Source of the DNA: a virus
Taxonomy: Duplodnaviria > Caudoviricetes
DNA length: 27,362 nucleotides
Direction: 5' to 3' (one strand)
Virus record (IMG/VR): IMGVR_UViG_3300005764_000068
Coordinates: 1 to 27,362 of that record
Below are positions 5,204 through 18,381 of this stretch, one piece after another. The position numbers were made by a program, and so were the translations under genes. Positions within the stretch are counted from its first letter, which is position 1, and each line of letters begins with the position of its first letter. The notes beneath the pieces were generated by a model. That model ran no database searches. It saw nothing but the letters and a program-made list of their open reading frames with translations, and was not told the origin of the DNA.

Positions 5204-7717
5204 ATGGCCGACAACGTCGTCCCATTCCGCGGGCACTTTCCGTACTTCGGGCACTTCAACAACCTGGTCACCGACACGTGGAAGAACTTCGTGTCGATGC
5301 TCGGCACGGAGAAGGACAAGACCGTTGCCGCGACGCCGGTTGTCGAACTGCTCGACATGCTCAAGCTCGACAATCTTTACCGCGGGAACTGGGTGTGCAG
5401 GAAAATCGTCGATCTGCCGGCGTGGGATTGCTGCCGGGCATGGCGCCAGTGGCAAGCGGAAGAGGATCAGATCGAGAAGCTGGAGGAGGCTGAGCGCAAG
5501 CACGGGCTGCAGCGCAAGGTCATGGCCGCGATCTCGCGGGCCCGGCTCTACGGTGGCGCGGCGATCATCTTGGGCCTGGAAGGTTGCGGCCAGTTCAACG
5601 AGGAGCTTGATCTCGACGACGTCGGCAAGAACGCGCTGAAGTTCGTGCATGTCATCAGTGGTGGCCGGCATCAGATGATCACGGCGGGTCAGCGCATCCT
5701 CGATGTGACGTCACCCTGGTTCGGCGAGCCGAGCTATTACATGCGCTCGAACACGCCGACGCCGCAGCCGCCCGGCAACGTGGCGATGATCGAGACATCC
5801 GGGCTTGGCTATCCGCCGGGCTCGACCTTATACATCCATCCATCGCGGGTGGTGCGCTTGACCGGGCTCGACTATCCCGATCCTGAGACGTCGATGGATT
5901 CGTGGGGCGACAGTGTGCTGCAGCCGGTCTACGACGCGGCGCGCGCTTCGGGCTCGGTCTCTGGTGCCATCGCGGCGATGGTGCAAGAGAGCAAGATCGA
6001 CATCATCAAGATGAAGGGCTTGTCGGAGTTGATGTCGACACGCGAGGGCGCGCAGCGGCTCTACGATCGCTACAGCAACTCCAACGTGGCGAAGAGCGTG
6101 ATCAACACGCTGATGCTGGACGTCGAGGAGGAGTTCGTCCGCCACGAGATGCACTACGCCAACCTCGACAAGGTGATGACGCTGTTCCTCTTGGTGTGTG
6201 CGGCCGCGGCGGACATTCCGGCGACACGATTGTTGGGGCGAGAGCCCGCCGGCATGAATGCGACGGGCGATAGCGATATCAGGAACTACTACGACCGGCT
6301 GGCTGCGGACCAGGAGGTGCGGCTGCGGCCGACCTTGAGCAAGCTCGACGAGGTATTGATCCGCTCGATCTTCGGCGATCGCGACGAGGACATCCACTAC
6401 ACGTGGAACCCACTGTGGCAGATGTCGGACGAGGAGCAGTCGCAGGTCGAACTGCGCAAGGCGCAGGCGTTCGCGATCGACGTCAACGCCGGCCTGATCG
6501 ATCCGATGGCGCTCAAGGAAGGTCGGCAGAACTCGCTGATCGCTTCTGGCTTCCTGTACAAGGGCCTCGATGCGGCAATCGAGGAGGCCGAGACCGCGGG
6601 CGATGACGAGGACATCGACGAGCAGCAAAGCGCGGGGCTGTTCGGCGAGCAGCCTGGACAGTTCGGTCAGCCTGGCGCTCCGCCTGGTGGTGCGCCTGCT
6701 GGCGGAAAGCCACCGCCGTTCGGCGGCAACGGCAAGACGCGTGACACCGCAGACGAGCGTGGCGAGTTCATCCGCGATCCGCTGACGGGGCAATGGGGCG
6801 GCTCGCACGCCGGCTCGCATGAGAGCAAGCTGTCACGGCGCGAGGCGCGTTACCGGCAGCTAATCAGCGCAAAGCATCCGGCGAAGCCGATCGAGTCGGC
6901 GCGGCTGCTGTCGGCTGCGGCGCGAGGTAAATCATCGGCCGGAAAGGAGTTCGAATCGTATGCGCGCGGACTTGAAGGTGTCACCGGCAAAGGTGCTGCC
7001 GCGGGTCCGATCGAGCAGGTCGGCGCGCAGACTGGCGGCAAGACCGAGCCTGCGGGCGGGCGCAAGGCCTCGCCGGGCGTACCGGACCGGCTGGTGCAAG
7101 CGATCGAGGACCACGTCAATGCAATGGCCGGCGAGGGTAGCCGGCACGGTGCCGGCGATCTGTCCGAGTGGATAACTCGTGCGCATCGTGACGACATCAT
7201 CGCGCTGACCGATGCCAGCAAAGATAAGTGGCCGATCCTGTTGCTGCACAAGGGCGATCCTGCGGCGGGGATGCCGACCGTGTGGATGCTGACGTGGAGC
7301 AAGAACGATACGACGTCGATCCACGATCATCTGGAATCGGAAGTCGGCGTGTCGGTGGCGCGCGGCAGCGTCGGCAATCGGGTGTACTCGACCGGCGAAG
7401 GCTATTTGGACAAGGCGAAGAGCAAGGCGGGGTTGGAGTCGCAGACCGGCGAACAGATACTGCAGCGCGACCAGACCGTAACGCTGAAGTCGCCGTACAT
7501 CCACGAGATGTTCGGCACTGCGGAGCCTGGTCAGAAGCGCGACATCACCGTGCATTCGTATTATCCACCGCTCAAGCAGATGCACTATTTCAAGAAGGAC
7601 AACAAAGGTAACCTGCACTACGCTGGCGATTGGGACGAGGATCGCAATCCGGAGGATGTGATGGTGGTTGATGCCATGCGGGGCTTCCGCGGTTGTCCTT
7701 GCTGTTGTCTGGGATGA
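5204..7717 (+). CDS. Portal protein (DUF1073 type) with a C-terminal extension carrying a cysteine-dioxygenase-like cupin
   Basis: LYRGNWVCRKIVDLPAWD, ARLYGGAAI, IHPSRVV, AAAADIPATRLLGREPAGMNATGDSDIRNYYD, WNPLWQMSD; extension has WMLTW...IHDH...YIHEM...TVHSYYPPL. Confidence 0.93.
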   Translation: MADNVVPFRGHFPYFGHFNNLVTDTWKNFVSMLGTEKDKTVAATPVVELLDMLKLDNLYRGNWVCRKIVDLPAWDCCRAWRQWQAEEDQIEKLEEAERKHGLQRKVMAAISRARLYGGAAIILGLEGCGQFNEELDLDDVGKNALKFVHVISGGRHQMITAGQRILDVTSPWFGEPSYYMRSNTPTPQPPGNVAMIETSGLGYPPGSTLYIHPSRVVRLTGLDYPDPETSMDSWGDSVLQPVYDAARASGSVSGAIAAMVQESKIDIIKMKGLSELMSTREGAQRLYDRYSNSNVAKSVINTLMLDVEEEFVRHEMHYANLDKVMTLFLLVCAAAADIPATRLLGREPAGMNATGDSDIRNYYDRLAADQEVRLRPTLSKLDEVLIRSIFGDRDEDIHYTWNPLWQMSDEEQSQVELRKAQAFAIDVNAGLIDPMALKEGRQNSLIASGFLYKGLDAAIEEAETAGDDEDIDEQQSAGLFGEQPGQFGQPGAPPGGAPAGGKPPPFGGNGKTRDTADERGEFIRDPLTGQWGGSHAGSHESKLSRREARYRQLISAKHPAKPIESARLLSAAARGKSSAGKEFESYARGLEGVTGKGAAAGPIEQVGAQTGGKTEPAGGRKASPGVPDRLVQAIEDHVNAMAGEGSRHGAGDLSEWITRAHRDDIIALTDASKDKWPILLLHKGDPAAGMPTVWMLTWSKNDTTSIHDHLESEVGVSVARGSVGNRVYSTGEGYLDKAKSKAGLESQTGEQILQRDQTVTLKSPYIHEMFGTAEPGQKRDITVHSYYPPLKQMHYFKKDNKGNLHYAGDWDEDRNPEDVMVVDAMRGFRGCPCCCLG
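6737..6862 (+). repeat. Cargo-tag copy 1 (portal): TRDTADERGEFIRDPLTGQWGGSHAGSHESKLSRREARYRQL
   Basis: Matches three copies in MuF; TTCATCCGCGATCCGCT (6767-6783) is identical to 11322-11338. Confidence 0.9.
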
Positions 7718-7944
7718 ACACACACACCGTCGAGCGCATGATCATCGATACGCTGCGGCACAAAGCCAAGCGTCCTGGTGGAGGCCTGACGGTGACGGAA
7801 CTGGTGGCCTCGACCGGGATGACGCATCCGAACTTGATCTGTGCTGCGCTGACATTCATGCAGAACGGAAAAGTCGTCGAGAGTTTTACGGTCGACGGCT
7901 TGCGGGCGCGGCGGCTGTACTACCTGACGCGGGACCATCGTTGA
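7714..7944 (+). CDS. Putative winged-helix DNA-binding protein
   Basis: ATG 7714 overlaps the portal stop; GLTVTELVASTGM...AALTFMQNGKVV...RRLYYL. Confidence 0.6.
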   Translation: MNTHTVERMIIDTLRHKAKRPGGGLTVTELVASTGMTHPNLICAALTFMQNGKVVESFTVDGLRARRLYYLTRDHR

Positions 7945-8721
7945 ATGCTGATCAGCTATTCGTCCAATTTGGAAGATGTTCTGCTGACGCGCGTCTTTCA
8001 CAATCTGCACGACGGGCGCTACATCGACGTCGGCAGCTTTCGCCCGACCGAAGAGTCGAACACGATGGCGCTCTACTCGCGCGGTTGGCATGGCGTAGCG
8101 GTCGATCCGATTTACAAGTTCGAGACCGAGTGGGCGCGCAGATGGAAGATGCTGCGGCCGCGCGACACGATGCTCTACGATGCGGTGGGCGCGGCGCCGG
8201 GCCAGATCGAATACTTCCTGTGCAACTTCCGCGGTCTATCGACCTGCTCGCAGGCGGTGCTCACGCGACATCTGGGTCTGAGCGACACCAACAAGAAGGG
8301 CGAGGGCACGATGGTCGGCGTCACCACGCTCGACGAGATCATCGCGAAGTGCCTGGACGGAAAGGTGCCCGAGCTTATCTGCATCGACGTCGAGGGCATG
8401 GAGGGCGACGTTCTCAAGGGCATCGATCTCGCGAAAAATCGGCCGTGGTTGTTCGTGGTCGAGGCCTATTACAGCGCCGATTTGATGCCGCATTATCCGG
8501 ACTGGGAGCCACTGCTGACGGGGAAAGACTACGGGTGTGTGTGGGATGACCGCGTCAATCGGTGGTACTTGGCGGGCGAGCGCGCTGCGGTAGTGGACGG
8601 CGCGTTCGCTTTCCCGCCCAACGTCACCGACAACTACACGACTTACACGGAGTTGAAGCTGCAGCAGCGGCTTGAGGAGTACGAGAGTTCACGCGCGACT
8701 TGGCTCACCAGGAGAGGATGA
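7945..8721 (+). CDS. FkbM-family SAM-dependent methyltransferase
   Basis: ISYSSNLEDVLL...YIDVGS...SNT..LY.RGW.G..VDP...TTLD...IDVEGMEGDVLKGID...RPW..VVE. Confidence 0.9.
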   Translation: MLISYSSNLEDVLLTRVFHNLHDGRYIDVGSFRPTEESNTMALYSRGWHGVAVDPIYKFETEWARRWKMLRPRDTMLYDAVGAAPGQIEYFLCNFRGLSTCSQAVLTRHLGLSDTNKKGEGTMVGVTTLDEIIAKCLDGKVPELICIDVEGMEGDVLKGIDLAKNRPWLFVVEAYYSADLMPHYPDWEPLLTGKDYGCVWDDRVNRWYLAGERAAVVDGAFAFPPNVTDNYTTYTELKLQQRLEEYESSRATWLTRRG

Positions 8722-8900
8722 TGGCAGCGCAGACGCACGAATACATGGTGGTCGAGGAGCGGCTGGGCTCTCCGCAGACGAGCCAGGACGATCTCAACAT
8801 GCATGCGCGCGATGGTTGGCGCCTGGTGGCGATCTCGACCATCGGGCCAATCCCGGGGCGCTGGCTGTACATGGAGCGGCCGATCAGTGTGGCCACGTGA
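8718..8900 (+). CDS. DUF4177-like small protein
   Basis: HEYMVV...LNMHARDGWRLVAI...LYMERP pattern; ATGA coupling. Confidence 0.7.
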   Translation: MMAAQTHEYMVVEERLGSPQTSQDDLNMHARDGWRLVAISTIGPIPGRWLYMERPISVAT

Positions 8901-9282
8901 GATAGCCGAGGCCAACGAGATACTGCCGCGGTTGTGGATCGGCACCTGCGCAAGCTGCGATGCGGCGCGCGGCAAGCTGTTCTGCGTCAACGTGCTGGAG
9001 AACGGGCACACCGATTCTGGTGAGTGCCTGCACTTTCGCATCCTCGGTGATGATGGCCGAGCGAAGATCGACCGCGTACGCGGCGCCGGCCGGCTGATCG
9101 ACTGGAACTGGACCAACGCGAACGGTCTCCTGGTTCACTGCGGCGCGGGCGTCGAGCGCTCGCCGCTCGTAGTGGCGATGTGGATGTGCCAGCGCTTCGC
9201 GATGACCTTAGACGAGGCCTATGGATGGATTCGGCAGCGGCGGCCACAGGCGGAGGATCGCCGTTCCTGGCTGATCGAGTGA
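8887..9282 (+). CDS. Dual-specificity (Cys-based) protein phosphatase
   Basis: EILPRLWIG N-terminus, P-loop VHCGAGVERS (HCx5R), and LDEAY..IR.RRP; likely GTG start at 8887. Confidence 0.9.
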   Translation: MWPREIAEANEILPRLWIGTCASCDAARGKLFCVNVLENGHTDSGECLHFRILGDDGRAKIDRVRGAGRLIDWNWTNANGLLVHCGAGVERSPLVVAMWMCQRFAMTLDEAYGWIRQRRPQAEDRRSWLIE

Positions 9283-12200
9283 AGGGCTATGGGCTCGGTC
9301 GTGATCCGACCGGGACCATCAAGCTGCGTGGCTCGTTCCGGGCCCAACTCAAGCTGCGGCTGCGGTTGATCGGGGCGGCACTGCGCCAGGCCTGCGGCGA
9401 GCACGATCTGCTTGCGCTGGGGCGCGACGGGCCCTTGGCGTTGCATGCGCCCTCGACGGGGCTGCTCGCGTTCCAGCATTGCTTGACGACGGCGGTGCTG
9501 CAGCAACTCGGCAACGACTGGCAGCGCGAGTTCATCGATCGGGCTTGGACCAAGGGCCTGGTTGATGCGGTCGGCGAAGTCGGAATCGATCCCGGCTACA
9601 TCTCGCCTGATCGCGAGCACGAGCTAGCCCGTGCCGAGCTACGTGGGATCGGCGAGGCAATCGTGCAGGCGCTCACGCGCGCGGCCGCGATCGCGCAGGC
9701 GCGCCGGCTGCCGCGGGTGAAGGCGCTGCGCCGGCTGGTGAAGGAGTTCGACAAGTTCAAGCCCCGCGGTGTGGCGTTCACCAACACGGCGGTGGTGGGC
9801 GCGTACAATCGGGCCAAGATCGAGGTCTACCGCGTGGCCGGCGTGACGCATGTCGGAATCACGCCAGAGATGTTGCCGCGCAAGCTCATGCGCGACGCGC
9901 GCAAGCGACCGGAGCCCGAAGAGTATGTCGGCGAGGAGGACCTCGAAGGCGTCGCCACGGCCGGCGACAACGACGTCTGCGAGGAGTGCGAGGACTATTC
10001 CGCGGATAGCCCGTATTCGAGCGACGAGATCGAGCTACCGCTGCACCCGAACTGCCGCTGCGCCGTCTTTCCCTGGTTCGATATGCGGCGCATGCCGGAG
10101 TTCGAGGAGACCGATGCCGGCGAGGACGTTGAGTTCATCCAGGACCCGCGCGGCCGCTTCGCCGGATCGCGGCCTGGCTGGGGGAAGGCCAAGGAGGGCG
10201 GTGCCTTCGAGTTCGTCTCGCCCAACATCGAGCACCTCGAACTCAAGACCGCGCAGAAGAATCTCGGGAGCGTGCGCCAGCGCGCGCTGCGCCAGGCGAG
10301 CCAGGAGATCGACCGCCAGCTAGGGATCAGGAGCGAGGACCACGACATCATCGGCGCCTGGACGGACGGTGCCGAGAACTCGATGATGAGCATCAGCCGG
10401 GCCGACTGGGATCATCTGAAACTCTCGGCGGCGATGAAGGGGCACCTGGCGGACCAGAAATCGGTCCTGGTGTTCCGGCAGACCGACCAGGGCAAGTCGG
10501 TGCTCTACAGCTTCCCGCGCACGGGATCGCTGGAGGACATCCACGCCGACCTGCTCAAGAACGGGCTTGCCTTCCACACCCTGGTGCCGCAGAAAGGCGG
10601 CGCCATGGTCTACGTGGCGGACCTGGATGGATCGCTCTATGACGCAGTCGACAAAGCCTCAACAGGATCAGACGTCGAGTACCAGTTCGGGCGCGCCGAG
10701 TTCGTCGGCACCAACATCGAGACCGGCAGCGACCGCGAGCAACGCGATAACGCACGCCGAGCTTACGAAGAAGCTATCCGACAATCCCCGATTCCGAAGG
10801 GGAACGCAGTCTGGACGCGGATACGTAATCGTTGGGGCGAAGCCCTAAATCCGGACAACGAGAGCTTCGCCTTCGGCGTCAACGGGCCTGCCAACAACAA
10901 GCTGATCGAGGCCTCGCAGAGCGAGGAGACGCGGCCGGTCGAGCAGGTGCATCTGCGCAGCGACGAGCCGGTGACCGGCTTCCTCACGCCGGAAGGTCAG
11001 GTGCTGCAGGCATTCGAGTCTCACAGCGAGAGCGCGCGCAAGGCCGGCACGAGCTTGAGCCGGGTGCAGACCGAGGGCGGCGCACGGCTGTTCTACTACC
11101 CGAAGGACTACGTCGGCGTTGATATGTACGCGCGGCCGACGCAGCAGCAGTTCCGGGCGATCGCCAGGGCGGTGGCGGAGGGCCAGGTCAAGCGGCTGTT
11201 CTTCGACAGCCACAGCGCGGCGCAGCATCTCGGCGGCGAGTTGCCGGTGACGCAGCGTGAGCTACGCGCACTGATCAACAAGCTGCATCCGGCGCTGGAG
11301 ATGACCGACGCGGACGTGGACTTCATCCGCGATCCGCTCACCGGGCAGTTCGGTGGATCGCATGGGCACGCGACCAAGCTGGAGGCGCTGCAGGCGCGGC
11401 ACCAGGCGCTGGTCAATGCGGCGCACCACGACGTCACGGTCTATCACGGCTCGCTGCTCAGTCTGACCGACAAGATCGCGGCGGAAGGATTGACGCTCAA
11501 TCACGAGCACGTCTTCGCGTCGAACCTGTACAAGGACGACCGCGGCAATGCGGTGTTCGTCACGACGAATTTCAACGATGCGGCGCAGTTCGGCCAGTTC
11601 GCGCTGAGGCGGCACGGTCAGCCTGGCGACAAGGTCGCGGTGTTCGAGGTGCACGTCCCGGAGGACGAGTGGAATCGGGATTGGCGCTACGACATGGAGG
11701 GGCTGGAGGGTTCGCGCTATTCGCCGAAGGATGTGCCGGCGGACTGGGTCAAGAAGGTCACTGTGATGGGCGGCTATCGCGAACCTAACGAGACCAGGAA
11801 GCTGCACGACGCGGCCGGCGATCGGAAGGTCTACGTCGTCTATCTCGTGCGCGAGCCGAAGGCGGCAGACGCACAGCCAGATTTCATTCAGGACCCGGCG
11901 ACCGGGAGGTTCGGCGGCTCGCATCCTGGCTGGGGCGAGCAGAAGCAAGCGCCGGCCGGCCCGCGGGTGTCGAAGCTGGAGGAGGCGCAGGCGCGGCATC
12001 GCGAGTTGATGTCGACGGCGGCGACCGGGCGGGCGCGTGGTGGCAAGGCGCACTGGACTGCCGGCGTCGGCGAGAAGCCTGGTCGGCATCCGCTCAAGGG
12101 ATACTCGAAGGAAGCGCGCATCGACGAGGAGGGCGTGATCCACACGTCCAATCTCGATGACGCGGTGAAGGCGCTGTCGGAGAACCGCAAGATCGAGTTG

Positions 12201-12752
12201 AACCAGCCGCGCGAGGTCTCGACCTTGCTCGACAAGCTCGGCGAGGTCGCAGCCGACATGATCGCCAAGGGCGAGAAGGCGCCGATCTTCGATCTGTGCA
12301 ATGTGAGCGTGAAGGGCACGAACCTGTTCTGCCACGAGGCGCACAACATCCCGCGCATCAAGATGCCGCAGGTCGAGACGGGCGAACTCGGAGAGGCCAA
12401 GTTCATCGAGTGGCTGAAAGATCGCGGCTATAAGACGACCGAGGGCGAAGAGGATGCGTCGTACCTGCGCGCATCACAGCACCAGTTGAACGGCGCCAAG
12501 GTCGCCGGCATTGCCAAGTCGTTCCGCGAGGGTAAGCGTACGGACTACAAGCTGTTCGTCTCGCGCGACAACTACGTGCTCGACGGACACCATCGCTGGG
12601 CGGCAGACGTCGGCCTGGAGGCGGCGCGCGGCGAGTTCAAGGGCCAGCGCATCAAGGTGCACCGCGTCAATGCCGGCATCATCGAACTGATCGGCCTGGC
12701 CAACAAATACACGAGCAAGCGGGCGGGCGTTGGCGATCGGCGTCAGAAGTAA
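9279..12752 (+). CDS. MuF (Mu gpF/SPP1 gp7-like) minor head protein, multidomain with four cargo domains, 1157 aa
   Basis: GTG 9279 overlaps the phosphatase stop; TAGDNDVCEEC...PLHPNCRC MuF signature (~9957-10060); then SAM-lyase-like, GFLTPEG...H, YHG-type ART and VLDGHHRW ParB/Srx segments. Confidence 0.9.
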   Translation: MKGYGLGRDPTGTIKLRGSFRAQLKLRLRLIGAALRQACGEHDLLALGRDGPLALHAPSTGLLAFQHCLTTAVLQQLGNDWQREFIDRAWTKGLVDAVGEVGIDPGYISPDREHELARAELRGIGEAIVQALTRAAAIAQARRLPRVKALRRLVKEFDKFKPRGVAFTNTAVVGAYNRAKIEVYRVAGVTHVGITPEMLPRKLMRDARKRPEPEEYVGEEDLEGVATAGDNDVCEECEDYSADSPYSSDEIELPLHPNCRCAVFPWFDMRRMPEFEETDAGEDVEFIQDPRGRFAGSRPGWGKAKEGGAFEFVSPNIEHLELKTAQKNLGSVRQRALRQASQEIDRQLGIRSEDHDIIGAWTDGAENSMMSISRADWDHLKLSAAMKGHLADQKSVLVFRQTDQGKSVLYSFPRTGSLEDIHADLLKNGLAFHTLVPQKGGAMVYVADLDGSLYDAVDKASTGSDVEYQFGRAEFVGTNIETGSDREQRDNARRAYEEAIRQSPIPKGNAVWTRIRNRWGEALNPDNESFAFGVNGPANNKLIEASQSEETRPVEQVHLRSDEPVTGFLTPEGQVLQAFESHSESARKAGTSLSRVQTEGGARLFYYPKDYVGVDMYARPTQQQFRAIARAVAEGQVKRLFFDSHSAAQHLGGELPVTQRELRALINKLHPALEMTDADVDFIRDPLTGQFGGSHGHATKLEALQARHQALVNAAHHDVTVYHGSLLSLTDKIAAEGLTLNHEHVFASNLYKDDRGNAVFVTTNFNDAAQFGQFALRRHGQPGDKVAVFEVHVPEDEWNRDWRYDMEGLEGSRYSPKDVPADWVKKVTVMGGYREPNETRKLHDAAGDRKVYVVYLVREPKAADAQPDFIQDPATGRFGGSHPGWGEQKQAPAGPRVSKLEEAQARHRELMSTAATGRARGGKAHWTAGVGEKPGRHPLKGYSKEARIDEEGVIHTSNLDDAVKALSENRKIELNQPREVSTLLDKLGEVAADMIAKGEKAPIFDLCNVSVKGTNLFCHEAHNIPRIKMPQVETGELGEAKFIEWLKDRGYKTTEGEEDASYLRASQHQLNGAKVAGIAKSFREGKRTDYKLFVSRDNYVLDGHHRWAADVGLEAARGEFKGQRIKVHRVNAGIIELIGLANKYTSKRAGVGDRRQK
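10110..10184 (+). repeat. Cargo-tag copy 2: TDAGEDVEFIQDPRGRFAGSRPGWG
   Basis: Directly after the MuF domain and before the first cargo. Confidence 0.85.
11301..11411 (+). repeat. Cargo-tag copy 3: MTDADVDFIRDPLTGQFGGSHGHATKLEALQARHQAL
   Basis: Directly before the YHG ART domain. Confidence 0.9.
11862..12008 (+). repeat. Cargo-tag copy 4: AADAQPDFIQDPATGRFGGSHPGWG...SKLEEAQARHREL
   Basis: Directly before the ParB/Srx-like cargo. Confidence 0.9.
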
Positions 12753-13003
12753 CGCGGTGCGGCGTTCGGCTTGGCGCGCCTGATGGCGGCCTCGATATCG
12801 ACGCCGATGCTGCGCAGCGCCTCGTCGGTCGAGATGCCGTGCTTCACCATGAGTTCGAGCAGCATGGCGGTGCGGGGATCGACGTCGCTGTGGCCGGAGA
12901 TGAAGCGCCGGCTCGTGCGCGGGGCGAGCCCGAGGAATCGGGCTGCCCCTTGCTGCGAGAGCTTGAGCTTGGCGATGAGCTTCGCGTAGCGCTCGGGTTT
13001 CAT
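12743..13003 (-). CDS. XRE/Cro-like HTH transcriptional regulator
   Basis: MKPERYAKLIAKLKLSQQGAARFLGLAPRTSRRFISG; ATG 13003 overlaps the upstream TGA; 3' end overlaps MuF convergently by 10 nt. Confidence 0.8.
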   Translation of the reverse strand: MKPERYAKLIAKLKLSQQGAARFLGLAPRTSRRFISGHSDVDPRTAMLLELMVKHGISTDEALRSIGVDIEAAIRRAKPNAAPRYF

Positions 13004-13260
13004 CGCTTTGAACTTGCGCATATCGAAGCCTCTGGGTTGGTCTTGCACGACTCGTCTGGCACCGAACTAAGCAGGCCATTCAAGTGGTAGTACATCGGGA
13101 CATCCATCCGGTCGCGCCACTTCGGCGTCACGCTTTGCGCGACGTACGCTAGCACGCCTAAGAGGAGCAACAGCGCCACGCCCCGCACAATGTCGCGGAG
13201 CATGACGCCGTTTAATGCCAGCAAGATGAGCACGAGAAGAATTGCGATCAGCCACAGCAT
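13000..13260 (-). CDS. Small two-TM membrane protein
   Basis: Two hydrophobic runs, C-terminal Cys pair; GAAAGG SD. Confidence 0.7.
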   Translation of the reverse strand: MLWLIAILLVLILLALNGVMLRDIVRGVALLLLLGVLAYVAQSVTPKWRDRMDVPMYYHLNGLLSSVPDESCKTNPEASICASSKR

Positions 13261-13262
13261 GT

Positions 13263-13616
13263 TTATCGCCTTTCGACCTCGAACTCGCCGACGTAGACCT
13301 GGAACTGGCCCTCTTGGGTGAGACCCCAGCCGCGGTCGGCGTCATGCTTGGCGACCAGCTTGCAGAAGTCGCCGATCGTCATAGCAGGTTCGCCGGCAGA
13401 GCCGAAGCCCGAGCTATCGACGAAGTGCTCGTCGACGAGCTTCCAGCCCTTGGGGCGATAGTCGCCGAGGTTGGGGATGCAGCGCACCGGGCCGATTTCA
13501 CCGTCGGCGAGCATCGCGCGCTGCGTCTCGCTGAACACCATCGGGAGCTTGCGCTCGCGCTTGGCGCGCTTGGCGGCCTGTTCCGACAAGTCGCGGATTG
13601 CTTGCAGTGACATCAT
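13263..13616 (-). CDS. Hypothetical phage protein
   Basis: 117 aa; FVDSSGFG..GEPAMT...GQFQVYVG; GAAAGGAAA SD. Confidence 0.8.
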   Translation of the reverse strand: MMSLQAIRDLSEQAAKRAKRERKLPMVFSETQRAMLADGEIGPVRCIPNLGDYRPKGWKLVDEHFVDSSGFGSAGEPAMTIGDFCKLVAKHDADRGWGLTQEGQFQVYVGEFEVERR

Positions 13617-13731
13617 GATCAGTTTCCTTTCGAGTTAATGCGGCGGCCAAGTCGCGCTTGAACGCCTCGTATGCGGTGCGCTCAATGCGGGCACCGTTCG
13701 CCAGTGTGATCAGTTCCAGCTTGTAGGCCAT
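13498..13731 (-). CDS. Possible small protein (MAYKLELITLANG...) or gene remnant
   Basis: Strong SD and TGATG coupling, but the frame overlaps the next gene by ~119 nt. Confidence 0.35.
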   Translation of the reverse strand: MAYKLELITLANGARIERTAYEAFKRDLAAALTRKETDHDVTASNPRLVGTGRQARQARAQAPDGVQRDAARDARRR

Positions 13732-14180
13732 CAGTTTCCTTTCCTGGTCTTGGGCGGTCCGAAGACCGGCCGGTTGCCGATCACTTGGGCCTTGCCGAAC
13801 ACGGGGTGATCGACCGTGTGCGGGGTGATCTGCTCGAAGCCTTGCACCGAGAGTTCGCCGAAGCGCACGTTGCGGCGCGCCTCTTCGAGCGTGGTCTTGG
13901 GCTCGATGCTGCCGCCCTCCTCGTCGGTCCCGAGGATGAGACCGCGGCCGGCGAGAGGCTGGGCGTAGCCGCGCCACTCGAAGAAGTAGCGCGGGTCTTT
14001 CAGGAGCCCTTCGTCGTCGACGTAAATCGCGTCGCCGTTCTGGAGGCCGACGGCCGTGAAGGTGTCGACCTCCAGTTCGTTGAGCTTGTCCGAAAGCAGT
14101 TCGTAGATGTGCCGGTAGTTTCCGGTGTGCTCCACTTCGGTGACGGTGTGGCGCACGGGATCGATCAGGAGTGCTTTCAT
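13731..14180 (-). CDS. DUF3846-like phage protein
   Basis: MKALLIDP...IYVDDEGLL...LAGRGLILGTDEEG. Confidence 0.75.
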   Translation of the reverse strand: MKALLIDPVRHTVTEVEHTGNYRHIYELLSDKLNELEVDTFTAVGLQNGDAIYVDDEGLLKDPRYFFEWRGYAQPLAGRGLILGTDEEGGSIEPKTTLEEARRNVRFGELSVQGFEQITPHTVDHPVFGKAQVIGNRPVFGPPKTRKGN

Positions 14181-14672: not shown

Positions 14673-14706
14673 GGATATGAAATGCCGCGCACAGAGGTAT
14701 GCAGAA

Positions 14707-16491
14707 ATGCCATGGACCGCAGCAGAGGCTAAGAGCCACACCAAGTCCGCCGACACGCCGAAGAAAAAACGGCAGTGGTCAAAGGTCGCGAACGCCGCGC
14801 TCAAGAAGTACAAGAATGAGGGGCGCGCTATTCGCATTGCCAACGCCGCAGTCGGCGGCGACTCGCTCGAATGGCTCGACGCTGACTTCAAGCTCGTCGT
14901 CGACGCGATCATGTCGGCGGACGAGACCAAGACGCGCATCGTCAAGAAGGACCCGTTCGGTCGCGTGCGCGAGGTGCACGAGAAGCACGAGATCAGTTCA
15001 GAGGACTTCCCGCCGAAGAAGCACACGAAAAAGAAAAAGAACGGCGAGAACGACGACAGCGTCACCGCCGATCGCCGCAAGACAACCTGGCGCGATCCGT
15101 TCGGGCGCCTCAAGGCGACGATCGAAGAGGAGGAGGATGCGGCCGGCGTTCCGGGCAATCCGAACGAAGGCGAGTTCGAGCAGAACGTGTTTCCGAAGAA
15201 GAAGCGACGCGAGAGCGGTCGCGCTTCCGAGTTGGGGGAATGGGCGGCAGGCAATGACCTGGTAAAGGTCGCCGGCGGAGATAATGACTTCGAGATAGAG
15301 GACTATGTACCGCAGCGCATCGAGTTTCACGACACCATCGAGTTCGACGACAAGGCGAACGTCCACATCACGCAGGACGGATACCTTGCGGCGGAGCCGC
15401 GCATCGCGCGCGTGGGTGTGCAGCTATATCGCGGCGCTGAATGTGGGTGCGACGACGTCGATGTGGTGCGCGTCTATCGGCCTTACGATTCCGTCTTTGC
15501 CACCGACTCGATCCGCTCACTCGCACATCGTCCGGTAACCATCGAGCATCCGACCGAGCGCGTCACTGCCGACAACTGGAAGAAGTACGCGGTCGGGCAC
15601 ACCGGCGACACGGTGAGCCGCGACGAGGACGGCAAGATCACCTCGGTGCGCGTGCCGATGGTGCTCATGGATCGGGCCGCAATCCAATCATTCAAGGACG
15701 GCAAGAACCAACTGTCGGTCGGCTACACCTGCGATCTCGATTGGTGTGAGGGGCTGACCGACGACGGCGAGAAGTACGACGCCGTGCAGAGGAACATCAG
15801 GGCGAACCATCTCGCAGTCGTCGCCACGGCGAGAGGCGGCCCAACTCTCAGGATTGGCGACGACGCAGTCCATAAGGAGGTTTCCATGGACCTGAAGACG
15901 ATCACGATCGACGGCATCGCATGCCCGATGAGCGACACCGCTGCGCAGGTGGTGCAGCGGGCGCTCAAGAGCCTGAAGGACGAGTACGACGCCTTCAAGA
16001 AGAAGGTTGCCGAAGAGGAGGAGGACGACGAGGAGGAATCGTCGACCGACAAGGCGACGATCGTCGACCTCAAGAAGAAGCTCGACGCGAAGGATGCCGA
16101 GATCGTCACGCTGCAGAAGCAACTCAAGGACGCGACCGATCCGGCGTTGCTCGACGCGAAGGTCAAGCTCCGCGCCGACACGTTCCGCAAGGCGCAGGCA
16201 GTTCTCGGCGACAGCTACAAGCAGGACGGCAAGACCGTCGAGGATGTGCGCCGCGATGTGGTGAAGGCCTATCTCGGCGACATCGCCAAGGATTGGGACG
16301 AGAACAAGATCAGCGCATCGTTCGAGACGATCACCGCCAAGATCGGTGCGCCGGCCGGCAACACGTTCAGGGATGCGGTGCGCGTGTTCGCGCAACCGCA
16401 TACCGCGGATGAGGACCCACGCAGGAAGGCGTGGGCGGAGATGCTCAACGACCAGGCCAACGCCTGGAAGGGCGAGCGCAAGACGGCTTGA
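14707..16491 (+). CDS. DUF2213 prohead protease/scaffold with ~200-aa N-terminal extension
   Basis: ATG 14707 after AGAGGT; TQDGYL...IARVGVQLY...VYRP..SVF...PVTIEHP...LSVGYTC...QRNIRANHLAVV..ARGG..LRIGD. Confidence 0.9.
   Translation: MPWTAAEAKSHTKSADTPKKKRQWSKVANAALKKYKNEGRAIRIANAAVGGDSLEWLDADFKLVVDAIMSADETKTRIVKKDPFGRVREVHEKHEISSEDFPPKKHTKKKKNGENDDSVTADRRKTTWRDPFGRLKATIEEEEDAAGVPGNPNEGEFEQNVFPKKKRRESGRASELGEWAAGNDLVKVAGGDNDFEIEDYVPQRIEFHDTIEFDDKANVHITQDGYLAAEPRIARVGVQLYRGAECGCDDVDVVRVYRPYDSVFATDSIRSLAHRPVTIEHPTERVTADNWKKYAVGHTGDTVSRDEDGKITSVRVPMVLMDRAAIQSFKDGKNQLSVGYTCDLDWCEGLTDDGEKYDAVQRNIRANHLAVVATARGGPTLRIGDDAVHKEVSMDLKTITIDGIACPMSDTAAQVVQRALKSLKDEYDAFKKKVAEEEEDDEEESSTDKATIVDLKKKLDAKDAEIVTLQKQLKDATDPALLDAKVKLRADTFRKAQAVLGDSYKQDGKTVEDVRRDVVKAYLGDIAKDWDENKISASFETITAKIGAPAGNTFRDAVRVFAQPHTADEDPRRKAWAEMLNDQANAWKGERKTA
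15886..16491 (+). CDS. Nested in-frame scaffolding protein (internal start), 201 aa
   Basis: TAAGGAGG (15873-15880) 5 nt before in-frame ATG 15886, just after RIGD; product is charged and coiled-coil. Confidence 0.7.
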   Translation: MDLKTITIDGIACPMSDTAAQVVQRALKSLKDEYDAFKKKVAEEEEDDEEESSTDKATIVDLKKKLDAKDAEIVTLQKQLKDATDPALLDAKVKLRADTFRKAQAVLGDSYKQDGKTVEDVRRDVVKAYLGDIAKDWDENKISASFETITAKIGAPAGNTFRDAVRVFAQPHTADEDPRRKAWAEMLNDQANAWKGERKTA

Positions 16492-16528: not shown

Positions 16529-17395
16529 ATGGTTGTTGCAGTTCAGAGAATCTACCGCCCTCAAATCGCTCCGGCATTCGAGGGCATGCCAGCGGACCAG
16601 ATGCGTGGACCCGCTGACATCAGTCGCAACGTGGAAACGGCGGCCGGCATCGCATTCGGCCGCGCCGTGAGCCAGGGCACCCGTGATTACGGTGTGATCA
16701 TCGGTGGCTCGGCTTTCGTTGGCTGCTCGATGCGCGATCCGACTGTGGCGCTTGCTCCGGTCGATCCGCTCGCGGCGGCCGGCTCTGCCAACCCGCTCGA
16801 CAGCTACGGCCAGTACACCAGCGCGTGGGTGCGCACTGGCGGTCGCATCTGGGTGCGTGCTGCGGCGAACGTCGCCGCCGGCAACGCGCTCTTCTACAAC
16901 ACGACCAGCGGGCTGTTCACCAACAGCGCTTCGGGCACCGCGGCGAGCGGTTCGATCACCTTCTCGCAGCAGCCGACCGATGGCCAGACCGTGATCATCA
17001 ATGGCGTCACCTTCACCTTCAAGGCGAGCGGCGCCACCGGTGACCAGGCCAACATCGGCCCGACGCTCGGTGACACGATCAACAATGCGGTGGCGGCGCT
17101 CAACGCCTCCGGCACTGCCGGCCTCACCACGATCAGCTTCCAGGCCTATCCGCCTTCGCCGGGCGGTGCGGGCCAAGGCAGCGGCGCTAACCAAATCCTG
17201 CTTGGTGTCAAGGCGGTCGGCGTGGCGGGCAACGCCTACACGTTGGCGGCGGGCACGTTGCCGGGTGTCACGTTCTCCGGCGCGACGCTCTCCGGCGGCA
17301 CCGCGGCGGCGACGGCAATCACCGGTGGTCGTTGGAATACGACTGCGATCACGGGCGACCTCGCGATCGTCAATCTCGGCGTAGCAGTGGCCTGA
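16529..17395 (+). CDS. Head decoration/cement protein with an inserted Gly/Ala/Thr-rich domain
   Basis: Between scaffold and capsid; GMPAD...IAFGRAV...GRIWV...GGRWNTT; AGGAG SD. Confidence 0.75.
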   Translation: MVVAVQRIYRPQIAPAFEGMPADQMRGPADISRNVETAAGIAFGRAVSQGTRDYGVIIGGSAFVGCSMRDPTVALAPVDPLAAAGSANPLDSYGQYTSAWVRTGGRIWVRAAANVAAGNALFYNTTSGLFTNSASGTAASGSITFSQQPTDGQTVIINGVTFTFKASGATGDQANIGPTLGDTINNAVAALNASGTAGLTTISFQAYPPSPGGAGQGSGANQILLGVKAVGVAGNAYTLAAGTLPGVTFSGATLSGGTAAATAITGGRWNTTAITGDLAIVNLGVAVA

Positions 17396-17433
17396 CGGCA
17401 GAACTGGCCAGTCTCAAGAAAGGAGACACGAAA

Positions 17434-18381
17434 ATGCAGAACTGGTTTTCTGATGATATCGGCCAGCAAGCGCTTGGCTTCTTGATCAGCCAGACGACTT
17501 ACCTTGAGCCGCAGGTCTACCGCACGAAGTATCCCGAGTTGAACTATGCGAGATTCGTGCCTGTAGACTACTCAGCCAGCGAGTGGGCGAAATCGATCAC
17601 CTTCTTCTCGATCGACTATGCCGGCCGCGCTGACTGGATCAACGCCAATGCCAACGATATTCCGATCGCCGATTTCACTCGCGGCAAGTTCGAGGCTGCG
17701 ATCGAGATGGGATCGATCGGTTATCGGTACAACATCGAAGAGCTTGGCCAGGCGATGATGATCCCGGGTCTCAACCTCACGACCGAGCGCGCCAATGCGG
17801 CACGCCGCGCCTGCGAGGAGATGATCCACAACATCGCCATGTACGGCGATGTGCGCAAGAACTGGCTCGGGTTGACCAACAACACCGCGCCGACGGTGAT
17901 CAACGCGGTGAGCACTTGGGCTTTCAACATGTCCCAGACCACACCGCTGACGCAACGCGTCATCAACGACGTGAACGGCGCCATCACCAACGTGTGGCAG
18001 TCGACCTTGACCGTGGAGATGGCGAACACGGTGCTGCTGCCGCTCAGCGCGATCAGCCTGTTGGCGATCTCGCAGTTGCCGAACACGACCATGAACCTGC
18101 TTGAATGGCTGCAGCGCAACAACCTCTACACGCAGCAGACTGGGCAAGCACTGACAATCATGGGCGTGCGCGGCCTCGACACTGCTGGCTCCGGCGGCTC
18201 AGGACGCATGATTGCGTACCGCAACGATCCGGAGGCACTGAAGCTGCATATCCCCAAGCCGCAACAGTTCTATGCAGCACGCCAGGTCGGCGCATTCGTC
18301 TACGAGGTGCCGAGCCTGTTCCGCATCGCTGGTCTTGAGTGGCGGCTGCCGGCGACTGCTCGCTACGTCGATGGCATCTGA
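17434..18381 (+). CDS. Major capsid protein (DUF2184 type)
   Basis: ATG 17434 after AAGGAG; ALGFLISQ...YPEL...GYRYNIEEL...YGD...GLTN...RMIAY...P..ARYVDGI. Confidence 0.92.
   Translation: MQNWFSDDIGQQALGFLISQTTYLEPQVYRTKYPELNYARFVPVDYSASEWAKSITFFSIDYAGRADWINANANDIPIADFTRGKFEAAIEMGSIGYRYNIEELGQAMMIPGLNLTTERANAARRACEEMIHNIAMYGDVRKNWLGLTNNTAPTVINAVSTWAFNMSQTTPLTQRVINDVNGAITNVWQSTLTVEMANTVLLPLSAISLLAISQLPNTTMNLLEWLQRNNLYTQQTGQALTIMGVRGLDTAGSGGSGRMIAYRNDPEALKLHIPKPQQFYAARQVGAFVYEVPSLFRIAGLEWRLPATARYVDGI

Follow-up and report, generated by a model that had tools for sequence, protein, structure and literature searches.

Two head proteins of a contractile-tailed phage, the portal protein and a MuF-type protein, share four copies of a short peptide, here called the tag, and each copy heads a separate domain with a predicted enzyme-like fold (hereafter a cargo). 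The phage is known from IMG/VR record IMGVR_UViG_3300005764_000068, all 27,362 nucleotides of which were analysed (hereafter the window, a 27-kb fragment; the record itself is no longer than this). Related tags mark cargo starts in head proteins of other phages, and the residue ahead of them matches the type of head protease encoded nearby. The explanation that we favour, and regard as probable, is that the tagged cargos are cut free from portal and MuF by a DUF2213 head protease and that the tag then acts as an address or handle. Protease-processed head cargo is already of a known type; the tag itself is widespread and undescribed.

The portal protein (837 aa; 5204..7717, plus strand, as for all features below unless stated; PF06381 over aa 56-424, E 9e-93; phrog_146) ends in a cargo tail of about 325 aa, and the MuF-type protein (1190 aa; 9180..12752 in the open reading frame used, with a start at 9225 in the database call) carries three tagged cargo units. 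The latter matched phrog_4728 (head morphogenesis, E 4.6e-6); TIGR01641 stayed below its cut-off (E 0.016; 15.5 bits vs 39.65) and PF04233 gave no match. Tag copy 1 (6737..6862; core Phe at 6767, portal aa 522) consists of a predicted Asp cut site, a core and a helix. Copy 2 (10107..10184; core Phe at 10134, MuF aa 319) has a PGWG element and lacks the helix, copy 3 (11301..11411; core Phe at 11322, MuF aa 715) has the helix, and copy 4 (11862..12008; core Phe at 11883, MuF aa 902) has both. An earlier note on this DNA had reported four such copies with this same mix of PGWG and helix, and all of them were found in frame at the places it gave; its start for copy 2, 10110, is right in location but falls on Thr, one codon past the Glu of the ETD site. 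When all six frames of the window were scanned with two loose patterns of the core, these four copies and nothing else matched, and the local alignment of the portal tail with MuF scored 114, compared with a mean of 45 and a maximum of 72 in 500 shuffles. Every copy stands behind an xxD-[AT] site and ahead of a separate domain, as had been claimed, but a second domain after copy 2 (aa ~566-706) is untagged. Since copies 1 and 3 differ by six synonymous and one non-synonymous codon changes in 14 codons, it is the peptide on which selection acts.

A related locus whose portal is 73% identical to that of the window (L001) provided an empty-site control. Its portal, of 517 aa, ends about where copy 1 begins, and its MuF (392 aa; 62% identity to the window MuF over aa 35-299) has neither tags nor cargos, which indicates that tag and cargo were gained or lost together. 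Among the 119 nearest portal relatives, picked regardless of tags, a tag was present in 25 of 38 long tails, in 1 of 81 short ones and in no portal core. In the tails of long portal relatives and in proteins sharing cargos with the window, the tag follows a general motif, aromatic-x(3-4)-[HQE]PR-x(n)-G[RKQ][FW]-Gly-rich, in which Arg and Gly are nearly invariant. Two narrow DNA patterns of this general tag corresponded to an estimated ~480 and ~160 IMG/VR stretches (143 and 132 retrieved, respectively), and a third gave 62 in GTDB genomes. A general-tag profile had 344 matches, spread over 233 proteins, and 0 in the reversed set, and no Pfam family covered the tag in 30 tagged proteins.

The exact 46-aa form of the tag is private to this phage. 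The profile of the four window copies that the earlier note had proposed as a search tool failed in that role: among 1,950 candidates it matched the window MuF and one MuF fragment and nothing more, in metagenomes it found the window alone, and in cultured phages it gave two chance matches. A narrow DNA pattern of the window tag retrieved one unrelated locus (L011), and a search for loci seeded on the protease had no match. Because the helix was absent from all other proteins among the 3,414 searched, we place it outside the general tag. The general-tag profile, built without the window copies, misses them, and therefore the window tag was classed as a variant; its kinship with the general tag is drawn from the same position, the shared cargos and the existence of bridging forms with HDP or HPHDP. 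The pattern D-[FY]IQDPxTG matched 17 loci, and a window-like form with a GS[RH]PG-like tail was found in 8 proteins of head-gene or tag-bearing loci and in 2 on short contigs; six matches seemed unrelated by context, and three loci had no called gene bearing the pattern. Window-like and general forms occur together in five loci (L290, L298, L299, L304 and L306), and both are present in the single chain P0128. Two truncated kinships were seen beside these: P0002 (464 aa) is the same as the window MuF to aa 378 and unrelated beyond, and P0003 departs from the window portal just ahead of the portal tag, each being either a chimeric assembly or a real variant. Elsewhere the same slot behind a predicted site is filled by other junction peptides, namely H[PE]F[RH]GNQY, a GSGNFGH form and an HDQ form (P0088, P0096-P0103, L028, L194).

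After near-identical matches were collapsed and matches beginning late in the cargo were dropped, a tag lay within 75 residues upstream in 13 of 16 homologues of cargo 2a (2.6 expected), in all 4 homologues of cargo 3 (1.2 expected) and in 19 of 34 homologues of cargo 4 (5.2 expected). The expectation that the tag marks cargo starts in head proteins, with cargos varying behind it, was thus upheld by comparison across phages. In the loci fetched by tag pattern, with proteins labelled by local profiles, tags were carried by 20/67 portals, 15/46 MuF proteins, 9/36 proteases, 2/11 protease-capsid fusions and the one portal-MuF fusion (1/1), in all 47/161 of these classes, compared with 0/51 large terminases and 0/20 stand-alone capsid proteins. 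A head gene lay within 3 kb of 98/165 other tagged proteins, vs 310/985 untagged ones. Tags were seen across five portal families and three protease families and in both myo- and siphoviruses. Whole-record scans of nine tag-bearing phages gave 55 matches, 46 of which fell inside one block of at most ~15 kb per genome. Six of the nine outside it were in stand-alone genes beside tail-fibre-like or terminase-like genes, behind Lys; two were weak (E 0.03-0.05), and one was in the baseplate hub of phage 7-7-1 (gp113, L287:3903-5267, PDB 9rku), where residues 82-96 form a tag-like Gly-rich insert (E 0.013 in PDB) that, if resolved in the map (a point on which the covered text of PMC12796354 is silent), could reveal contacts of the motif. 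The tag has a wider range than the earlier note had foreseen: it is bound neither to portal and MuF nor to DUF2213, and occurs also on the protease, at the sites of other proteases and in genes that open with the tag.

In the last group, a Met stands within 4 residues ahead of the tag near the gene start. The GTDB set has 39 such cases among its 64 tagged proteins, mostly from a few related prophage groups; no such tag (0/111) was seen in the protease-labelled IMG/VR loci. Several belong to prophages with terminase, portal and minor head genes in which three local profiles and PHROGs detected no protease. Met-start tags were also seen in two genes amid bacterial housekeeping genes, with no phage genes in 20 kb (L324:9101-10072 and L341:9962-10405), and in three 417-aa LRV-repeat proteins (L027, L049, L067) beside a TnpB-like gene and an AAA_10 ATPase; no head gene was detected in these three loci, which possibly represent a non-phage element.

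The earlier note had proposed cutting after Asp by the DUF2213 protease, which the window encodes as a head maturation protease-scaffold at 14677..16491 (PF09979 E 5e-49; phrog_530). Its DUF2213 domain (aa 231-395) carries His291, Ser347 and His378, invariant in 23/23 sequences of the DUF2213 alignment, and ends in IGD395; a profile comparison with S78 gave a weak match, located at the Ser strand (E 0.002, probability 12%). We compared the residue before the tag with the head protease for 140 tags from 35 phage groups, which had been collapsed and each had a labelled protease; loci with no tag were left out, as were tags that lacked an aromatic anchor or stood at the very start. With canonical DUF2213, Asp was found within 4 residues before 28 of 29 tags (background 24%), and it was the majority residue in 11/11 canonical groups vs 7/19 S78-type groups. 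A divergent DUF2213 clade had Asn within 2 residues before 11 of 17 tags, these being all 11 tags of four groups, and Lys or Arg stood within 3 residues before 33/40 tags with S78_2 and 48/54 with S78 (together 81/94; background ~33%). The association gave a permutation p of about 1e-5, which overstates it because the residue rules were drawn from the data on which they were tested and the phage groups are related. The end of the protease domain mirrors the rule, with Asp in canonical DUF2213, the window included, and Asn in the four Asn groups. A prophage found later (L321) has an Asn-ending protease and an Asn-preceded tag and is one of three GTDB loci with DUF2213, all of which agree. Asp also preceded 27 of 32 tags in the portal relatives, whose proteases lay out of sight. 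Asp cutting thus remains apt for canonical DUF2213, with which Asp ahead of the tag goes specifically, but has to give way to Asn or Lys/Arg with other proteases. Cultured phage Orimi01 (L288:2270-4381) combines a portal bearing an Asp site, a general tag (at aa ~522) and a short enzyme-like tail with a canonical DUF2213 protease.

Published structures bear on the predicted sites, as far as the covered parts of those papers go. The capsid map of E217 (DUF2213, E 4e-29) begins at residue 66, with the first 65 missing (PMC10329688); the missing stretch ends AMD64-S65, and AMD-S appears again in the portal and scaffold. Although Asp sites and a long portal tail are present, E217 is tagless. In the Pa193 portal, the first 93 residues were unseen by mass spectrometry and residues 529-765 had no density (PMC11456595). 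The capsid of Sf11, which has a divergent DUF2213, was modelled from residue 46, directly after Asn45, and yet peptides were reported from residue 40 (PMC12724387), so that this case is ambiguous.

Taken together, these data are consistent with the following course. Portal and MuF bear enzyme-like domains, each headed by a tag copy, and fusion to either protein would load the cargo. The DUF2213 protease would cut after Asp in the prohead during capsid maturation, a step that we hold to be quite likely. Each freed cargo would then begin with its tag, and a head or tail-channel protein would grip the tag, so that the cargo is kept inside and leaves with the DNA. Packaging and injection of the cargos we consider likely, and a binding role for the tag reasonably probable. 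Stand-alone genes that open with the tag suggest that it can load cargo alone. A broader version is tentative and, to us, somewhat short of an even chance: the tag would be a family-crossing address peptide of a general delivery route, whereby any enzyme behind it, either stand-alone or behind a protease site in a portal, MuF or protease chain, would be retained in the head and then ejected, with the residue ahead of the tag reading out the P1 preference of the head protease (Asp or Asn for DUF2213).

Instead of an address, the tag could be only a part of the protease junction, on its product side: a cassette for docking or spacing by which the site becomes cuttable and which is idle once the cut is made. 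Tags mostly lie 0-4 residues behind the predicted site, in L209 and L079 a tag directly follows the end of the protease domain itself, and tags are homogenised within a phage, all of which would suit this reading. We nevertheless think it unlikely, given that the same tag is found behind Asp, Asn and Lys/Arg sites, which belong to three protease families, and also opens stand-alone genes at their start Met, where no cut is called for. Standing first in either setting, behind cuts by unrelated proteases or behind a start Met, the tag more plausibly has its function at the mature N-terminus than in cutting. An N-degron reading, with the cut exposing Phe, Trp or Tyr, was dropped, because cutting at Asp-type sites would mostly leave Ala or another spacer first and because some tags follow a start Met. 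RDxxGRF hairpins similar to the tag occur in DNA-binding phage proteins, and the tag might be a small DNA-gripping hairpin by which cut cargos cling to the packaged DNA and are pulled along when it leaves, without need of a protein partner. An invariant ligand would suit both the nearly invariant Arg and Gly and the wide spread of the tag over families of portals and proteases and over myo- and siphoviruses noted above. On the other side, the 15-residue core has a median net charge of -1, no stable fold is predicted for it, and phage-specific variants rather suit a phage-encoded partner, which makes the hairpin slightly less likely still than a mere junction.

The earlier note had also raised the possibility that the tag DNA serves as a recombination joint for cargo exchange. 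As a full explanation, with the tag a copied DNA cassette, the peptide a tolerated linker and the proteins left whole, this is the least probable of the three, and a purely DNA-level joint is disfavoured. Copying of tags must occur: tag identity is 0.55 within a phage vs 0.32 between phages, and own-phage tags are more alike in 52 of 56 groups. The mixed parts across the four copies and the exchange of cargos at the tag fit a joint as well, and in the covered sections on Pa193 and E217 a cut portal tail and a mobile one are indistinguishable from the maps. Against it, the changes between copies 1 and 3 are mainly synonymous, merely 24-34 bases of 39-42 are identical, the peptide is kept across phyla, and a neutral linker would not track the protease. 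Within-phage likeness, the charge of -1 and the synonymous excess together make it more likely that a phage protein reads the peptide than that the tag binds DNA or is nothing but a joint.

The favoured reading, cleavage followed by use of the tag as an address, also has observations weighing against it. No tag-binding partner was identified, and in the AlphaFold2 (AF2) model of copy 3, the core has no regular structure (predicted local distance difference test, pLDDT, 54-68), with a helix at 27-41. A tag is not obligatory for cargo, since 13 of the 38 long-tailed portal relatives are tagless, and homologues of cargo 2b have a tag upstream in 0/3. The insert in the 7-7-1 hub lacks both an upstream aromatic and a cut site and is the only match in that genome. 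Among the residue rules, whose circular derivation is noted above, there are exceptions: a fifth divergent DUF2213 group (that of L028) has Leu, and L164 has an S78_2 protease yet Asp sites. The window's own Asp sites are weak evidence because the window-like variant is Asp-rich even in Lys/Arg-type phages, and its copies escape the general profile. Finally, the Met-start genes have the narrow origin given above, and the absence of a protease from their prophages rests on the three local profiles and PHROGs.

The cargos differ from one another. The portal tail contains a cysteine-dioxygenase-like cupin (7265..7597; PF05995 E 2.6e-8, above cut-off; matches to cysteine dioxygenases in PDB, E 0.005; Atlas 0.91-0.92), which had no homologue among the tagged proteins compared; portal aa ~575-680, ahead of it, received no domain assignment. 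Cargo 2a (10200..10847) is predicted to adopt a tandem ferredoxin-like fold nearest to phage S-adenosylmethionine (SAM) lyases (AF2 pLDDT 94). Its model in VIA had 6zm9 (Z 8.2) and 7ock (Z 7.1) as the top two of 48,161 chains, both modest scores, and Foldseek placed 8bb1 at rank 7 with probability 1.00. Against PF23780 it reached 12 bits (E 0.19; cut-off 28), with Glu65 of the alignment invariant; there was no Atlas match, and a PDB sequence search was empty. Cargo 2b (10875..11297) is an unassigned, untagged domain without a PHROG that is always directly behind 2a, all three homologues following 2a without a tag. Cargo 3 (11424..11858) has a predicted ADP-ribosyltransferase (ART) fold nearest to KptA/Tpt1 (Foldseek 8tg4, E 2e-5, probability 1.00) with an invariant His, and had no match in a PDB sequence search. 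Cargo 4 (12084..12719), which we take to be ParB/Srx-like from its DGHHR motif, matched phrog_2859 (E 6e-21) and, by tblastn, large structural proteins of F116-like phages; it has 34 homologues and no Pfam match. SAM depletion serves as anti-restriction in T3, and the predicted folds suggest that the cargos may act in anti-defence through SAM depletion and ADP-ribosyl chemistry.

With at least two domains of disparate activity per chain (SAM-lyase-like, ART-fold and ParB-like, with the cupin on the portal), portal and MuF fit phage-type polyvalent proteins, and their genes lie, as is typical of that class, with head genes of the portal-terminase kind (here portal, protease, cement and capsid in order). 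The capsid targeting sequence of T4 is a propeptide that gp21 removes; it precedes the protease site, whereas the tag comes after the predicted P1 residue, so that the mature cargo would keep it. According to the sections covered of the papers cited in this paragraph, enzymatic domains strung on MuF, portal or head protease are predicted to be packaged and injected (PMC5512222, PMC3482391, PMC9503650), and polyvalent proteins (Iyer et al. 2017, 2022; Zhang et al. 2012) resemble the window in having unrelated enzymes strung on head proteins. Their processing is credited mainly to in-chain zincin metallopeptidases, with assemblin-like proteases in a minor part, whereas in the window a separate DUF2213 protease is predicted to do it; those sections mention no shared junction peptide and no covariation of site and protease, both of which were found here. 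Residues 1-30 of P1 DarB package a reporter, and T4 internal proteins carry capsid targeting sequences (PMC9024508); these are short N-terminal peptides addressing unrelated cargo to the head, and the tag would be alike in this. The P1 Dar proteins have no common consensus, whereas the tag is common to phage families and is also internal in polyproteins. In SPN3US/phiKZ-type phages, a single prohead protease processes the portal, the capsid protein and internal proteins alike, at a short P3-P1 motif, AXE (PMC10052503), and strips N-terminal propeptides, whereas here several C-terminal enzymes would be released and P1 would be Asp. A literature search, in which subscription papers were thinly covered and the Iyer supplements lay outside coverage, found no description of the tag or of the site-protease switch.

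Since effectors fused to MuF or portal were first reported, it has been an open question how they leave the dodecameric portal and reach the cell. With a shared tag behind sites that match the protease, cut positions can be predicted exactly and put to the test, and the specificity of uncharacterised DUF2213 proteases, relatives of which are present in 1,434 of 50,697 phage records, can be predicted as well. The tag is also a sequence handle with which to mine anti-defence proteins that are injected, and it might be developed into a means of loading proteins for delivery by phage. Orimi01, being cultured, is a ready test system.

The head genes of the window are arranged in the order portal, MuF-type protein, DUF2213 protease-scaffold, cement and capsid, with baseplate genes after them; no terminase was identified in this fragment. 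The cement and major capsid proteins (16529..18381; PF22758, PF09950; 8hdt E 9e-80) are both untagged. The protease has a long N-terminal extension (14677-15330) with basic runs and two DPFGR hairpin-like units behind Asp sites, which were rejected as tags since the tag profiles did not match them; the extension is kept in L001 and had no further homologue among the proteins compared. Small minus-strand genes (helix-turn-helix-like, DUF3846) break the head operon between MuF and protease (12743-14180). Between portal and MuF (7945-9282) lie genes for an FkbM methyltransferase and a dual-specificity phosphatase, and the methyltransferase is found at the same place in L001.

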